64,000 nt of DNA from Armatimonadota bacterium. GTDB taxonomy: Bacteria > Armatimonadota > SYMT01. The stretch spans positions 416,001-480,000 of the forward strand of contig JAWLHY010000002.1 of assembly GCA_041690135.1 (NCBI GenBank). The letters are read 5' to 3'. How positions within the stretch are numbered: the stretch's first letter is position 1; the number at the start of each line of letters is the position of its first letter. Shown piece after piece: positions 16,546-29,350 of the stretch. The notes below the pieces were generated by a model. It saw nothing but the letters and a program-made list of their open reading frames with translations, was not told where the DNA came from and searched no databases. A program made the translations under genes and the position numbers.

Positions 16546-19284
16546 ATGAAGAACCTATACAAAACGTTTCCCCGAACGCTTGCCGGCCTCCTGACCCTTT
16601 TCCTGATGCTGGGCGGCCTGACGGCGCGCGCGGCCCAGGGGCAGACCCCGGCCACGAATTCCGCCGCCAACATCACGGCCGGCGTCAAGGAGACGATCCT
16701 GCCGAACGGGCTCAAGGTCCTGACCAAGGAAGTCCGCAACGCACCGGTCGTTAGCTTTGCCGTCTGGTACAAGGTCGGCTCCCGGAACGAGCACACCGGG
16801 ATCACGGGCGTTTCGCACCTGCTGGAACACCTGCTGTTCAAGGGCACCAAGAAGTACGGCCTGGGCGAAATCTCCCGGACCCTCTTCGTGAATGGCGCCA
16901 GCTTCAACGCGAGCACCTATTACGACTGGACCAACTACTACGAGACGCTCTCCTCCGACCGCCTCGAGCTCGCGATGCAGATCGAAGCGGACCGGATGGT
17001 CAACAGCCGTATCGATAAGGCCGATCTCGACTCGGAGATGTCGGTGGTCCGCAGCGAGCTGGAAGGACGGGAGAACAGCCCAGGGACGCTGCTCTACCAG
17101 GCCGTGCAGGCCGCCGCGTTCCAGGCGCACCCGTACCAGTGGCCGGTGATCGGCTGGCGGACCGACGTGGAAAACGTCTCCCGCGACGCCATCTACAATT
17201 ATTACAAGACGTACTACGGCCCCAACAACGCGACCGTGGTGATGGTGGGCGACTTCGAAACGGAGAAGGCGCTGGACCTGGTGCGCAAGCACTTCGGGAA
17301 GCTCAAGCGGATCCCGGAGCCGCCGCAGGTCTACACCAGCGAGCCGCCGCAGCGGGGCGAGCGCCGCGTGGAAGTGCGCCGCGCCGGATCGCTCCCGATG
17401 ACCTTGATCGCCTACCGGACGCCGGAAGCGAAGCACCCGGATTTCTATGCTCTCGATGCCCTTTCCATCGTGCTGGGCGAAGGTCGTGTCAGCCGGCTCT
17501 ACCAGGCGCTGGTCGAGAAGCAGATCGCTTCGGATGTGGACGCCGGCGCTGCCAGTCTGCGGGATCCCTATCTCATCACCGTCTCCGCCACGGCGCGTCC
17601 TGGGGTGACCGTGGAGAAGCTGGAAGCCGCGCTTCTGGCCGAGATCGAGCGCCTGAAGAAGGAGCCGATCACCGCCGAGGAGTTGGAGCGGGTCAAGAGC
17701 CAGATCGAGGCGAGCTTCGTCTTCCAGAACGACAGCGTCACCTCGCAGGCGAACCAGATCGGCTACTGGGCGATGATCGACGACTGGCGCTATCTCTCCA
17801 CCTACCTGGACCGCATCCGCGCCCTGAAGCCGGCGGACATCCAGAAGGTGGCGCAGAAGTACTTCGTGACGGACGCCCGCACGGTGGGCCATTTCATTCC
17901 CACCGCCGGCGCCGCCCCCACCGCTCCGCCGCCGCGCGAGGCCTCCGCCCGCGTGGAGAAGGCGAAGAAGGGCGCGCGCCCGGTGCCGCTGCCGAAGCCC
18001 TCGCCGGCCCCCCGCGTGGCCCGGCAGGTCGCCCGGTTCAAGCTCGATAACGGCGTCTCCGTCATTGTCCAGCCGAACCATAACAACCCGACCTTCGCCC
18101 TGCGCGGCAGCCTCGGGGCCGGGAGTATCCTGGAGCCGAAGGACAAAGAAGGTCTGGCCGGTATCACCGCGGCGATGCTCTCCCGCGGCACCGAGAAGCG
18201 CAGCGCGCTGGAGTTCGCGGCGGCCCTCGCCAACCGGGGCGCCAGCCTCTCGGCGAGCGGGGGGACGCTGGCGACCTCTCTGTCCGCCCGAGGCCGCACC
18301 CAGGACTTTGATCTGGTGATGGACCTGCTGGCCGAGATGCTGCGCCAGCCCACCTTCCCGGCCGATCAGCTCGAGCGGCTGAAAGGCCAGATACTGGCGG
18401 GTATCGAGCAGCAGAAGGACGATCCGGACAGCCGGGCCAACCGCGCCTTTGAGCGGCAGGTCTATCCCGTAGGCCACCCGCTGCGGCCGGCGACCCTGGA
18501 AGAAGCCGCGAAAGCCGTTGCCGGCCTGACCCGCGAGGATCTAGTCAACTTCTACCGTCAGCAGTACGGGCCGGAGCGCATGATCCTGGTGATATCGGGT
18601 GACGTAACCGCCGAGAAGGTGAAGCAGGCCCTGCAATCTCGCCTGGGCGACTGGCCGAAGAACCCGAACGCGAAGCCGATCCCGCAGGTGGACCTGGCGC
18701 TGCAGCAGAAAGCGGAACGGCTCAACATCGAGATCCCGGACAAGAGCGAGACTGCGATCCTGTTCGGTCACGCGGGGGGGCTGAAGCGGAGCGATCCGGA
18801 CTTCTACGCCACGCAGGTGATGAACATGATCCTGGGCGGCGGCGGCGCGCTGAACAGCCGCCTCGGCGACGTGATCCGCGACGAGCAGGGGCTGGCGTAC
18901 ACCGTCTTCAGCTTCTTCGACTCGGACCTCTATCCGGGGCCGTTCATGATCTCGCTGGGAACCAATCCCGCCAACGCGGAGAAGGCGATCACCAGCCTCC
19001 AGAGCGAGCTCCGCCGCATCCGCGAGCAGGGGGTGACCCAGCGCGAGGTGGATGAGGCGATCGCCTACGTCACCGGACGCTTCCCACTGCGCCTGGAGAC
19101 CAACTCCGGCCTGGCGGAGATCCTCTGGGTGGCGGAGTTCTATAACCTGGGGCCGGACTACATCGACAAGTACGCCGATTACTACCGGGCCGTGACCGTC
19201 GCGATGGTGAACGAGGCGGCGCGCAAGCACCTCCATCCGGACACTGCTACGCTGGTCACCGCCGGACCGCCGCCGGTGAAGTAG
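16546..19284 (+). CDS. M16 family zinc protease (fused two-module, PqqL-like)
   Basis: HLLEH inverted zincin motif, second module with IRDEQGLAY; signal peptide. Confidence 0.95.
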   Translation: MKNLYKTFPRTLAGLLTLFLMLGGLTARAAQGQTPATNSAANITAGVKETILPNGLKVLTKEVRNAPVVSFAVWYKVGSRNEHTGITGVSHLLEHLLFKGTKKYGLGEISRTLFVNGASFNASTYYDWTNYYETLSSDRLELAMQIEADRMVNSRIDKADLDSEMSVVRSELEGRENSPGTLLYQAVQAAAFQAHPYQWPVIGWRTDVENVSRDAIYNYYKTYYGPNNATVVMVGDFETEKALDLVRKHFGKLKRIPEPPQVYTSEPPQRGERRVEVRRAGSLPMTLIAYRTPEAKHPDFYALDALSIVLGEGRVSRLYQALVEKQIASDVDAGAASLRDPYLITVSATARPGVTVEKLEAALLAEIERLKKEPITAEELERVKSQIEASFVFQNDSVTSQANQIGYWAMIDDWRYLSTYLDRIRALKPADIQKVAQKYFVTDARTVGHFIPTAGAAPTAPPPREASARVEKAKKGARPVPLPKPSPAPRVARQVARFKLDNGVSVIVQPNHNNPTFALRGSLGAGSILEPKDKEGLAGITAAMLSRGTEKRSALEFAAALANRGASLSASGGTLATSLSARGRTQDFDLVMDLLAEMLRQPTFPADQLERLKGQILAGIEQQKDDPDSRANRAFERQVYPVGHPLRPATLEEAAKAVAGLTREDLVNFYRQQYGPERMILVISGDVTAEKVKQALQSRLGDWPKNPNAKPIPQVDLALQQKAERLNIEIPDKSETAILFGHAGGLKRSDPDFYATQVMNMILGGGGALNSRLGDVIRDEQGLAYTVFSFFDSDLYPGPFMISLGTNPANAEKAITSLQSELRRIREQGVTQREVDEAIAYVTGRFPLRLETNSGLAEILWVAEFYNLGPDYIDKYADYYRAVTVAMVNEAARKHLHPDTATLVTAGPPPVK

Positions 19285-19301
19285 GTTCAACGTTCGGCTA
19301 T

Positions 19302-19341
19302 GGAACATCCCCTTCTCCAAACGAGAAGGGGATGTTCCTTT
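19302..19341 (+). terminator. Intrinsic terminator
   Basis: 16-bp stem ggaacatccccttctc/gagaaggggatgttcc followed by ttt. Confidence 0.8.
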
Positions 19342-19908
19342 GTAGACTGAAAATATAAGAGTAATAATATGATGAATGCATAGATCCAAACGAACGTCGC
19401 TGCGAGGAGAGGTAGAAACCAACCGACTTCCCAGACCCTCATCCGCAATACCGCCGAAGCGCAGCCGACTTGCCTCTGCACCCCGGTACCCGACGTGGCA
19501 GGCCCCCTGGTCAGAGCACCCGTCCTTACGCGGCCGTGGCAATCTCGTGGTCAGGGCACCTCTCCTTGCACCGGCAATCAGCCGCCCCACCACCGCCGTG
19601 CATCGGGTACCGTGGTGCAGTCGGGGAGGGGACGCAGGGCCCCGGTCGGGGAGGGCGACCCCGACCCCACTAGTGCACCACCGCACCCTATCCGAACATC
19701 CGAACGCCCGAACATTCCCCCCACAGGCGGGGCCGAACACCTATCCTGGCGGGCGAGACGCCCGCGCTTCTACTATTCGCCCTCATTCGCCGTATTCGCG
19801 GATCACAAGTCACAGATGTAGCAGGAGATCAACACGCGTCTCGGGAATCCGCATTCAAGGAGCGGAAGCCTGCTTCCGTATCGACCGACCGAGTTCCGGA
19901 TCCGCAAA

Positions 19909-21372
19909 GTGAAAGCAACCATCCCAGAACTGCTGCAGAGCGTCGATCTCTTTGCCGGACTGGAGCCGGAAACGCTGTCCGCCATCGTCGCGCGGGCTCG
20001 GTACCGGAGTTATCCTGCCCAGGAGGCGCTCTTTCACGAGGGAGATCCAGGCGAGACGTTGTACATCATCGTGCGCGGTGAGGTAAGCATTCAGCGCGTC
20101 GGCGGCGGCGGAGAGGTCGTCCAGATTGCGCGCAGGGGGCCTGGCGATCCCATTGGCGAGCTGGCTTTGATCGACGGCAAGCCCCGGATGGCGGATGCGG
20201 TGACCGCCGAACCCTGTGATCTGCTGGTCCTCGACCGATCGGGTTTTCTGACGTGGGTGGAGGAGTCGCCGCGGATCGCCCTGGCGGTCATCCACTGCCT
20301 CGCGAGCCGCATCAGGGAAGCGGCGGACGATCTGGAACACCATGTAACCCGGAGTGTCCTGGCGCGAGTGGCCGCCGAACTCCTGGAAATCGCCCCATTA
20401 CAGCCTCGGTCGCGCACCGGCTCGGAAGCCGCGACCCGAATCCGGATCAGCACCCAGGAACTCGCCCAGCGCGTCGGGGCGACGCGTGAGAGCGTCAGCC
20501 GCGCTCTCACGCGGCTGCGGAACATGGGTGCCCTGGAGGCGGGCCGGGTGATCTGCATTCGAGATGAGAAGCTGCTCCGGAGCCAGGTGGAAGTGCCTGC
20601 CTCCGAGAAAGCTCCACTCCTAACAGTGCCTCCCCCTGTGTTCGGGCCCCGGTCGCCCACTACAATCCGGCCGCCCCAACTCCGGTGGGGCGGGGAGCTT
20701 CGCTCTCGCCTATGTGAGATCCCCCTCTTTAGCGCGATGGATCCGGAAGACCTTACCGATTTGATGGCCCGAAGCCGTTGTCGCCAGTTTCCGGCCGACG
20801 AGGTGCTCTACCACACCGGCGACCCCTGCCACACTCTCTACGTGGTGCTGGTAGGTTGGGTCCAGCTCCGCCGGATCGCTCCTACCCGGGAGATCGTCTC
20901 CCTGGCCCGCCGGGGCCCCTGGGAGACCTTTGGAGAACTGGGCCTTCTCGATGGCGAGCCGCGCATGTCGGATGCGGTGACCGCCGCCCCCAGCGAGATC
21001 CTGATGGTTCCCGGCGCCCCGCTGGTGGAGTGCCTGGAACGCTCTCCCCGGGTGGCGCTAGCGATGCTGGCCACCCTGGCGGACCGCTTGCGCGATGCCG
21101 CGAACGCACTCGAGCAGCGGCGCGGCCAGGACGTACTCCGGCGGGTGGCGGCGCTCCTTATGGAGCTATCGCGCGAAACCGCCTCCACACGTTCGGCTGC
21201 TTCGGTACGGATAACCCAGGAGCATCTGGCCGTGGAGGTCGGCGCCCGGCGTGAAAGCGTCAATCGGGCCCTGGGCCGCCTTCGCAATGCCGGTGCGATC
21301 CGTCTCTACGGGGGCCGTTGGCTGGTCTCCGATCCCGCCAAGCTCTCCCGCTTCACTGAAGACCAGCGGTAA
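19909..21372 (+). CDS. Tandem (double) Crp/Fnr family transcriptional regulator
   Basis: Two complete units: cNMP pockets GELALIDGKPRMADA and GELGLLDGEPRMSDA; HTH helices GATRESVSRAL and GARRESVNRAL; Pro-rich linker. Confidence 0.9.
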   Translation: MKATIPELLQSVDLFAGLEPETLSAIVARARYRSYPAQEALFHEGDPGETLYIIVRGEVSIQRVGGGGEVVQIARRGPGDPIGELALIDGKPRMADAVTAEPCDLLVLDRSGFLTWVEESPRIALAVIHCLASRIREAADDLEHHVTRSVLARVAAELLEIAPLQPRSRTGSEAATRIRISTQELAQRVGATRESVSRALTRLRNMGALEAGRVICIRDEKLLRSQVEVPASEKAPLLTVPPPVFGPRSPTTIRPPQLRWGGELRSRLCEIPLFSAMDPEDLTDLMARSRCRQFPADEVLYHTGDPCHTLYVVLVGWVQLRRIAPTREIVSLARRGPWETFGELGLLDGEPRMSDAVTAAPSEILMVPGAPLVECLERSPRVALAMLATLADRLRDAANALEQRRGQDVLRRVAALLMELSRETASTRSAASVRITQEHLAVEVGARRESVNRALGRLRNAGAIRLYGGRWLVSDPAKLSRFTEDQR

Positions 21373-21397
21373 TCCTTTTCGCCGCCCATGTCATACT

Positions 21398-21463
21398 CGT
21401 GACGAGAATCACGTCCGCCTGTGTGCATCATCACGGCCGGCGAGGGTCCACCGTTGGTAGGAT
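21398..21463 (+). promoter_or_regulatory. Two Crp-type boxes plus extended -10 element
   Basis: CGTGA-N6-TCACG (21398-21413), TGTGT-N6-TCACG (21420-21435), TGgTAGGAT (21455-21463). Confidence 0.6.
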
Positions 21464-21470
21464 AATCCCG

Positions 21471-21659
21471 GCCGATCTCCAGGTCGTCGAGTCCCGGAAG
21501 GGGCTCCCCAGATTTCCCTGCGTGCCGCCCACTAACCAATCAACTGGCGCGCAGCACCTTCGGATTGAGTGTCCCTCGCGGTGGGGGTGGAGACGGCGCC
21601 GTTGGTGCCCACCGGAACGCCAACAAAGCCCGAGCCGTTTGGCTCGGGCTTTGTTGTTG
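21471..21659 (+). ncRNA. Candidate structured non-coding RNA
   Basis: Closing stem 21471-81/21588-97, GGAA-capped hairpin 21489-21506, stem 21518-26/21546-54; lies between a promoter-like site and a terminator. Confidence 0.45.
21621..21659. terminator. Hairpin terminator, possibly bidirectional
   Basis: 16-bp stem caacaaagcccgagcc/ggctcgggctttgttg between convergent units. Confidence 0.8.
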
Positions 21660-21709
21660 CTGTCCGGCCGGAACGGTGGACAGTCCATTCAACGGAACCG
21701 GATCCGCAT

Positions 21710-22498
21710 CTACCGCGGCGCACGGTCCGCCGGCCAGCCGGTTGCCGGCAGTGTCGTCCACTTCTTGCCATACGGGATCGTCTTGGCGTGCCCGTCGAAG
21801 TAGATCGCGTTATAGCCGCGCGAATGATTGTGGTTGCTGTTGGGCGGAATGGCGTCCGGCCCTTCCCAACCGAACGCCCCTCTCTCGAGGAACAGCATTC
21901 TTTCGGCAGGCCGGTCGGCAATCTCGGAAGGAGGCTCATCGTGCAGGCTGCGGTAGCCGTCCGGATAGCGGACGCACGGGAACGGCCCCGAGGCCCCCGC
22001 GGTACTGCCCGGACACCAGGTGTTGAACACCCAGTTCGGGAACCACTGGTACGATTGCCGGCCGGCCGCGATGAACGCCTGGGTGGGTGACGCCGTGGAG
22101 TCGGAGGGGCAATACCACACGTTCATGTTTTTGATGTAGGGGTTAAGCTGCACCGACATCAGCGTCCGGTAGAACTCCGGACCGTAGGCGCATCCGGTGT
22201 AGGCCGGCCCACCATCTCCCGGATTGAAGCCGGCCCAGTAGCCCCCGCAATCGGCGTTACCGAACGGGTTTACCTCCCAGTTTCGCGGGCCGGGATAGGT
22301 TCCCATGGGAAATTTTTCGTCGTAATCCCCCGCGTACATCTTCACGGCCAGGCCGATCTGTTTCAGGTTCGACAGGCAGGAGGTGAGCCGGGCCGACTCG
22401 CGCGCCTGTGCGAATACGGGGAACAGGATCGCCGCAAGTATGGCTATGATGGCGATAACGACTAGGAGCTCAATCAGGGTGAAACCTCGTCGTTTCAT
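21710..22498 (-). CDS. Prepilin-type N-terminal cleavage/methylation protein, DUF1559 with H-X9-DG motif
   Basis: [34 protein letters not shown]...CLSNLKQIG...YCPSD...[15 protein letters not shown]. Confidence 0.93.
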
Positions 22499-28911: not shown

Positions 28912-29320
28912 CACATCCCTCCAGGCCGGTTCACGGCACACCCCGCTCTGGTTTCTCTTTCGTAATCGTCCCCCGTTGTGCCTTCTTCGGGTGGGCGAAG
29001 GAGTGCTGCCGACTCGTGAACCCACCTTGGCACATCGTCAATTCCGATCCGTCCAACGCTCCCACCGGATCCAACACGGGTTCCGATCAACACCAGTCGA
29101 GGCGGTGGCCGGAGAGCAGGATCCTGGGCAACTGCGGCTTTGCACTCGCTCATCAAGTCCATCAGAGGGCAAGTACAGCCCTAACTCCGCCGGGTGTACG
29201 GTTGCCCCTACATTTCTCCTTACCGTTACCCCGCCGCCAGTCCGCACACTGCAACCGCTGAGGTTTTCTCCGTGTCCATCCGCCCGATCCGTGCCATCCG
29301 TGTCTCAAGCTGAAACACAG

Positions 29321-29350
29321 CAAAAAGCCCGGGCCAAACGGCCCGGGCTT
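29321..29350 (-). terminator. Intrinsic terminator downstream of the beta-propeller genes
   Basis: aaaagcccgggcc-aaac-ggcccgggctt hairpin with a U-tract on the minus strand. Confidence 0.65.

Follow-up and report, generated by a model that had tools for sequence, protein, structure and literature searches.

The 64,000-nt stretch of Armatimonadota DNA analysed here, which we call the window, encodes a Crp/Fnr-family regulator with two complete units in one chain, and directly behind its gene lie two Crp boxes whose layout recurs near the genes of its single-unit relatives. We believe these boxes are very probably the cognate site of the tandem protein. The fuller reading that we prefer, in which chains folded as pseudo-dimers would sit on both boxes and activate a promoter for a non-coding RNA of ~190 nt, goes a good deal further, and we hold it to be about evenly balanced between right and wrong.

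A tandem regulator in a subfamily of single units

The gene (positions 19909-21372, plus strand) encodes 487 aa, divided into unit 1 (aa 1-228; 19909-20592), a proline-rich linker of ~37 aa (aa 227-263; 20587-20697) with predicted disorder at aa 231-253, and unit 2 (aa 263-487; 20695-21372), whose winged-helix core spans aa 433-482. The succession by which the Crp/Fnr superfamily is recognised, a cNMP-binding domain followed by a Crp-type winged helix-turn-helix, occurs twice: the frame carries two cNMP_binding and two HTH_Crp_2 stretches, in agreement with the double-Crp protein of a preliminary description of this DNA. The units are 45% identical to each other. Their recognition helices, TRESVSR and RRESVNR, both bear the R-E-x-x-x-R motif noted in that description, and R193, E194 and R198, which make up a helix of the CRP R180/E181/R185 type, are present in both units and in all 23 aligned single-unit proteins. 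Members of the superfamily have one unit per chain and act as homodimers; two units are found in the tandem protein (P0001) and in its orthologue P0002, also of 487 aa and 75% identical. Because P0002 comes from a different source, the fusion is not an assembly artefact; its DNA was looked for in metagenome and genome scans and in 40 relatives, and was not found there. Between the two proteins, 92 and 95 of 113 residues are identical in the respective cNMP domains, 36 of 49 in the winged-helix core of unit 1 and all 50 in that of unit 2, and the linkers share 10 of 37 residues at lengths of 37 and 38 aa. Once fused, the two halves would be able to take on different tasks, and the differing degrees to which their DNA-binding heads are conserved agree with this. 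Upstream of the gene, positions 19284-19810 of the window consist of dispersed repeats with many copies in the genome.

Judged by the sequences searched, tandem Crp-like chains are rare, not unique. A profile search of longer proteins (8000 candidates scored) gave 39 matches with both domains only in P0001 and P0002, and HMMER against 1.84 billion representatives placed P0002 alone at the top. None of the 11 matches of 383-589 aa with several matching stretches, among the best 150 listed, contains the Pfam Crp helix-turn-helix. One of these 11, P0307 (456 aa), examined by eye, has two cNMP domains, each with a degenerate helix domain behind it that lacks the last Arg, and appears to be a distant, independent tandem chain. 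In a tblastn search of plasmids, the best 10 of 1170 records were single-unit stretches. A literature search, with subscription journals and supplements mostly outside its range, yielded no natural tandem Crp protein and no study of an Armatimonadota Crp.

The closest relatives are 115 proteins of at most 266 aa, mostly single units of ~230 aa, with identities up to 63%; several are labelled Chthonomonadales or Armatimonadota. Locus L058, from a record so labelled, coincides with the locus of G388, which is listed under the same phylum, and this puts the window in Armatimonadota. In the tree both units fall within this single-unit group, separate from the housekeeping Crp of the same genome (support 100/97, the bootstrap being not fully settled). 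By sequence, then, the tandem protein is a member of an Armatimonadota Crp subfamily that otherwise consists of single units. Unit 1 groups with P0032, its closest single-unit relative (63% identity), and unit 2 forms a long branch without a fixed place; the units as one clade are not rejected (AU p = 0.39), so that duplication and fusion of paralogues are both compatible with the tree. The best sequence and fold matches of each unit are M. tuberculosis CRP and GlxR, at ~30% identity. As a separate observation, at locus L032, whose Crp is more distant, the end of crp at 1134 (minus strand) is followed by a short ORF in which YVGPT-like motifs are repeated, and L031 has a similar one.

The ligand pocket is retained in one part and altered in another. 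The phosphate-ribose residues G83, E84 and R93 and the C-helix R134 are present in both units and in 22-23 of the 23 singles. Directly behind R93, both units and 20 of 23 singles carry Met in place of the Thr of M. tuberculosis CRP. Instead of that protein's C-helix Thr-Asn, both units carry Ala-Ala, with A138 shared by 22 and A139 by 20 of the 23 singles. In the accessible parts of two studies, CAP and Clr read the nucleobase with the positions occupied here by Ala-Ala and Met (PMC10187061, PMC10127613), and the former gives RS/RT and TS/TN as the signatures of CRP. Neither signature occurs in the tandem protein, both units having R-M and A-A, and the score against the NCBIfam CRP equivalog is 144.7 bits with a cut-off of 266, the protein falling below every NCBIfam equivalog cut-off. 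The base of the cyclic nucleotide is not predictable from the pocket because the T/S base readers are replaced by A/A and the phosphate-ribose part is kept. A cyclic nucleotide is a plausible ligand, with cAMP not established, and control of the tandem protein by such a molecule seems to us somewhat more likely than not.

Seven class III cyclase matches were found in the genome, the closest ~53 kb from the tandem gene. A cyclase lies within 1.5 kb at 3 of 33 subfamily loci and at 0 of 23 other Crp loci, a weak linkage. At L057, L058, L060 and L106 a single-unit crp gene adjoins class III cyclase genes, the neighbour at L058 (936 aa) being of a cyclase-NTPase-TPR type by eye; these cyclases are candidate sources of the ligand.

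Twin boxes behind the gene and across the subfamily

The distal box, CGTGA-N6-TCACG, occupies positions 21398-21413 and the proximal box, TGTGT-N6-TCACG, positions 21420-21435, neither with an assigned strand; the pair begins 25-26 nt after the tandem stop with centres 22 bp apart, as had been described. An extended -10-like element, TG-g-TAGGAT, is likewise present at 21455-21463 on the plus strand, 22 nt after the proximal box, and from the start predicted with it the boxes would lie at about -64.5 and -42.5. Class II activation by CRP uses a box near -41.5. When the 338-nt intergenic region was dinucleotide-shuffled 3000 times, a pair 21-23 bp apart never arose, and a single box arose in 300 cases. 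The site is not a strong one: each box has two mismatches to the consensus, the -10 is weak, and the whole lies outside our strict pattern. A simple scanner found no sigma-70 promoter in the region behind the tandem gene, and also missed the hairpin at 21621-21656.

The genome-wide scan for 22-bp pairs that had been proposed, run with a pattern free of the -10, returned three matches, and the only one with 22-bp spacing was the 21398-21435 site. A matrix built from 11 promoters of relatives ranked the site third of six genome matches above 17 bits, at 25.4 bits, where the training promoters score 24.0-47.9. A second 22-bp match to the matrix, at C13:83687, is the sole other 22-bp twin promoter found in the genome and stands before a gene whose 344-aa product is a DUF900 hydrolase, signal-like at its N-terminus. 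Perfect consensus Crp boxes number 12 in the genome.

This promoter layout is a hallmark of the subfamily. Close to its single-unit genes we find a TGTGA-N6-TCACA pair 22 bp (sometimes 23) apart and, 21-22 nt on, a -10 hexamer, for example TATAAT, TATACT or TACAAT; the gap from proximal box to predicted -10 is 21 or 22 nt in relatives and 22 nt here. Under a mismatch rule, 9 of 32 subfamily loci have a pair spaced 22-23 bp no more than 1.5 kb from crp, eight of them with a -10. Of the other Crp loci, 3 of 23 have a pair, and in no case does it combine 22 bp with a -10. A further subfamily pair, at L088, was recognised by eye. Among the relatives there are five in which the pair begins 18-75 nt past the crp stop and points away from crp, like that of the tandem locus. 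Across genomes, we took as subfamily genomes the 26 of 401 with a match to P0033 at E <= 3.4e-48, a cut taken from the tree. The strict pattern with -10 occurs in 19 of these 26 (16 when training sites are removed) versus 6 of the 375 others, counts that are not independent, the genomes being kin, and the reversed pattern, as a control, in none of the 401. The tandem genome is among the seven misses because its gap to the -10 is 22 nt. The pattern covers four family codes, and one genome, G087, has seven such promoters.

With a pattern free in spacing and without a -10 (177 rows less 27), 24 of 77 sites in the kin subfamily genomes have the 22-bp spacing among the matches listed; these 24, five of which are training sites, lie in 15 of 24 subfamily genomes, again among the matches listed. 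In the 19 genomes with only other Crps, the 22-bp spacing accounts for 1 of 43 sites and 23 bp is dominant, at 13 of 43, among the matches listed. Twin boxes 23 bp apart are found in G350, G320, G325, G333, G340, G295 and G102, all without the subfamily, which suggests that the phylum has another Crp system that works on paired sites. At L074 (G378), two back-to-back twin-box promoters with divergent genes lie +731 to +825 from the crp stop.

A class-II-type promoter cognate to the regulator, as the preliminary description had envisaged, is thus borne out to the extent that the layout of twin boxes and -10 recurs near single-unit members and tracks the subfamily across genomes. The comparison of homologues that it had suggested had a divided outcome: twin boxes do recur behind the crp genes of five single-unit relatives, and for the RNA no homologue turned up among 60 relatives. 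Since the layout is standard for the single-unit proteins, the boxes must predate the fusion, and the pair alone does not imply a four-headed protein; the reason given earlier for it, four helix-turn-helix domains per dimer, is not supported. We also considered that the fusion had moved the promoter by 1 bp, and dropped the idea, 22-nt gaps being present at the single-unit loci L146 and L147.

A candidate RNA, a proposed mechanism and its rivals

Behind the promoter we predict a transcript of ~190 nt (21470-21659, plus strand), a candidate sRNA without an ORF and without a homologue found. It would end at a 16-bp hairpin (21621-21656; -32.7 kcal/mol on either strand), a likely bidirectional terminator that a convergent prepilin-type DUF1559 gene (21710-22498, minus strand) likely uses as well. 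The RNA had been proposed to be structured and to have a terminator of its own. As to structure, 21465-21618 has a folding z of -0.32, a value that 73 of 200 shuffles reach, and the z of -3.28 for the longer stretch arises from inclusion of the terminator, only segments with the hairpin falling below z = -3. As to the terminator, the 16-bp hairpin is real, but it sits between convergent genes and can serve both; because it folds equally on both strands before the DUF1559 stop, it adds no separate evidence that an RNA is made. At 29317-29350 of the window there is another hairpin, 84% like this terminator.

Searches for an identity gave little. Rfam 15, 6S included, has no match in the window at gathering score, only sub-threshold ones driven by the terminator, and 6S RNA, which sits elsewhere, on C7, can be ruled out. 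The candidate shows no likeness to the twin-box RNAs of relatives, and no mRNA target rose above chance (longest match 13 nt, with 12-15 in shuffles). The stretch has no ORF with a ribosome site, only small ORFs lacking one; an overlapping 134-aa frame (21399-21803) was set aside, as it runs across the hairpin and is without a match in the protein atlas. A CsrA sponge, considered for the GGA loops, was rejected, PF02599 being found neither in the tandem genome (G000, 97% complete) nor in G080, and the 9-mer AACCAATCA, common to the site and L058, was taken as chance (E 9.2, 17 genomic copies). The genome encodes two Hfq homologues; the second, divergent one (G000:C8:143407-143751, minus strand, in a 226-aa frame) lies ~1 kb from the housekeeping crp and has a Crp box upstream.

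Relatives offer a context for such an output. At 30 relative loci, twin-box promoters run into an ORF of at least 60 aa in 18 cases, many with signal-like N-termini by eye, and 7 of these 18 ORFs match Pfam families: prepilin, CsgG, peptidases S8, C39 and C1, metallo-beta-lactamase fold and TPR. Another seven loci, representing four independent cases, have an ORF-less unit of 55-190 nt with a terminator. Judged by sequence, most of what these promoters drive is protein for export, and a part consists of ORF-less units with a terminator. For example, in G080 (L114/L080) an ORF-less unit of ~190 nt, similar in length to that of the tandem locus, stands directly behind the crp gene. One ORF-less family of ~130 nt with a strong terminator and differing neighbours occurs in five genomes of one genus (L110:1570-1706, plus strand, and L111, L112, L113 and L153; G233, G335, G192, G375 and G031); the RNA itself is without an Rfam match and is a candidate new family of Crp-activated sRNAs. 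In this context an sRNA of ~190 nt behind the tandem gene is plausible, and we would rate a real transcript at this locus as somewhat the better bet.

How the protein would act depends on how the chain folds. An AlphaFold monomer model, based on 95 sequences of which all singles aligned to unit 1 only, has pLDDT 85.2 and pTM 0.75 with a disordered linker; a run with 2 sequences was uninformative (pLDDT 52.9). The pTM of 0.75 leads us to infer that the two units hold fixed positions, in the simplest case those of a CRP dimer, though AlphaFold models of such chains tend to reproduce the homodimer geometry. This model and the close similarity of the C-helices make pairing of the two units within one chain, as a single-chain pseudo-dimer, probable. 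One chain would then occupy each box, and two chains would stand side by side on boxes 22 bp apart, probably cooperatively, like two dimers in the single-unit relatives. The alternative is a four-headed dimer in which unit 1 pairs with unit 1 and unit 2 with unit 2 (or in domain-swapped form), spanning both boxes, so that fusion hard-wires a cooperative pair. A subfamily that uses twin boxes would profit from two dimers joined in this way, the units have diverged to 45% identity, and the linker, whose reach we estimate at ~75 Å, has kept its length at low identity. At the same time, the fixed placement implied by the pTM speaks against it, and the C-helix positions, nearly identical between units 1 and 2, do not favour like-with-like pairing over the tethered partner; we regard the four-headed dimer as unlikely.

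With pseudo-dimer chains on both boxes, the chain at about -42.5 would touch RNA polymerase in class II fashion, the protein would be switched on by a cyclic nucleotide, the promoter would fire a non-coding RNA of ~190 nt ending at the hairpin, and the RNA may act by Hfq-type base pairing. Activation that yields an RNA seems to us moderately probable. The same features could instead be a decaying relic, a promoter whose adjacent target gene has been lost, the 250 nt being no more than an extended 3' tail of the crp message that reaches the common terminator. The low matrix score, ordinary folding and lack of an RNA homologue would suit a relic, as would a convergent gene that accounts for the terminator and the 18 of 30 relative loci that drive proteins; yet boxes, spacing and distance to the -10 are all in register, no remnant of an ORF with a ribosome site is seen, and ORF-less outputs recur in relatives, at L114/L080 directly behind crp and with similar length. 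A relic therefore has, in our estimate, a minor share of the probability, comparable to that of the four-headed dimer. Quite improbable, to our mind, is a role of the housekeeping Crp (C8:144674) as the reader of the boxes, with the tandem protein a bystander or antagonist. This Crp has an R-E-x-x-x-K helix (RESVNK) and the canonical RS/TT ligand signatures, and the genome has 12 perfect consensus boxes, but the genomes with only other Crps have 23-bp pairs (13 of 43, with 22 bp in 1 of 43, among the matches listed), and the 22-bp site adjoins a subfamily gene here as in relatives. Least probable is that occupation of both boxes represses: the proximal box at about -41.5/-42.5 is at the activating class II position, and constantly so across many promoters. 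The precedent is whiB1 of M. tuberculosis, where, in the available part of the report, tandem CRP sites 21 bp apart (-58.5 and -37.5) are occupied cooperatively and the second, proximal one represses (PMC2844151).

Beyond activation by pseudo-dimer chains, a more ambitious proposal can be made, tentatively and with low confidence: the subfamily may be active only as two abutting dimers on 22-bp boxes and may read a nucleotide other than cAMP, and in the tandem protein it may have become a natural single-chain heterodimer whose halves are specialised for contact with the neighbour and with polymerase, its output a small regulatory RNA.

Relation to known Crp systems

The tandem protein shares with E. 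coli CRP/CAP, M. tuberculosis CRP (Rv3676) and C. glutamicum GlxR the cNMP and winged-helix domains, the R-E-x-x-x-R helix and boxes of the TGTGA-N6-TCACA type, and is unlike them in having two units per chain, R-M and A-A in place of R-S/T and T-S/T-N, and abutting twin boxes as the standard promoter of its subfamily. Judged by its features it works like a CRP activator, yet it lacks the ligand signatures of CRP and scores under the equivalog cut-off; with the altered base-reading pocket, a new specificity for a cyclic nucleotide can be tested directly. For the output, a near parallel is E. coli CyaR, a CRP-activated sRNA: here too we have a probable Crp-dependent promoter, a predicted ORF-less RNA and a likely intrinsic terminator in an Hfq-containing cell, the difference being that our candidate is without an Rfam match.

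The promoter design, with abutting boxes at about -63.5/-41.5 at dozens of promoters, contrasts with the repressing sites of whiB1. Both have two adjacent boxes on the same face, occupied cooperatively at whiB1 and, by our proposal, here; whiB1, as far as the available part of its report goes, is one promoter with 21-bp spacing, whereas the spacing here is 22 bp, the proximal box lies ~4-5 bp further upstream and many promoters are involved. The tandem CRP sites of E. coli treated in the part of PMC3445967 available to us are at least 32 bp apart. Clr of S. meliloti acts with class III cyclases on the target smc02178 and contacts the base through T140 and T141, according to the accessible part of PMC10127613. 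Like Clr, the proteins described here would be dedicated Crp-family activators with a small regulon of their own, some adjoining class III cyclases; Clr is a normal homodimer, and a fixed twin-box layout is not described for it in that part of the source. The subfamily also marks out a regulon defined by sequence, with candidate sRNAs and proteins for export as its members, in a phylum on which little work has been done.

The closest counterpart of the tandem chain itself is an engineered one. As described in PMC6157895, Lanfranco et al. tethered two E. coli CRP subunits by an unstructured linker, and the natural single-chain Crp likely represents a design otherwise met, in the literature searched, only in such an engineered protein. 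Engineered single-chain CRP has served to study how the halves divide ligand, DNA and polymerase contact; the present chain likewise joins two subunits, but its halves occur naturally, share 45% identity and evolve under unequal constraint, and a chain with diverged halves of this kind would show what course evolution takes once the symmetry has been lifted.
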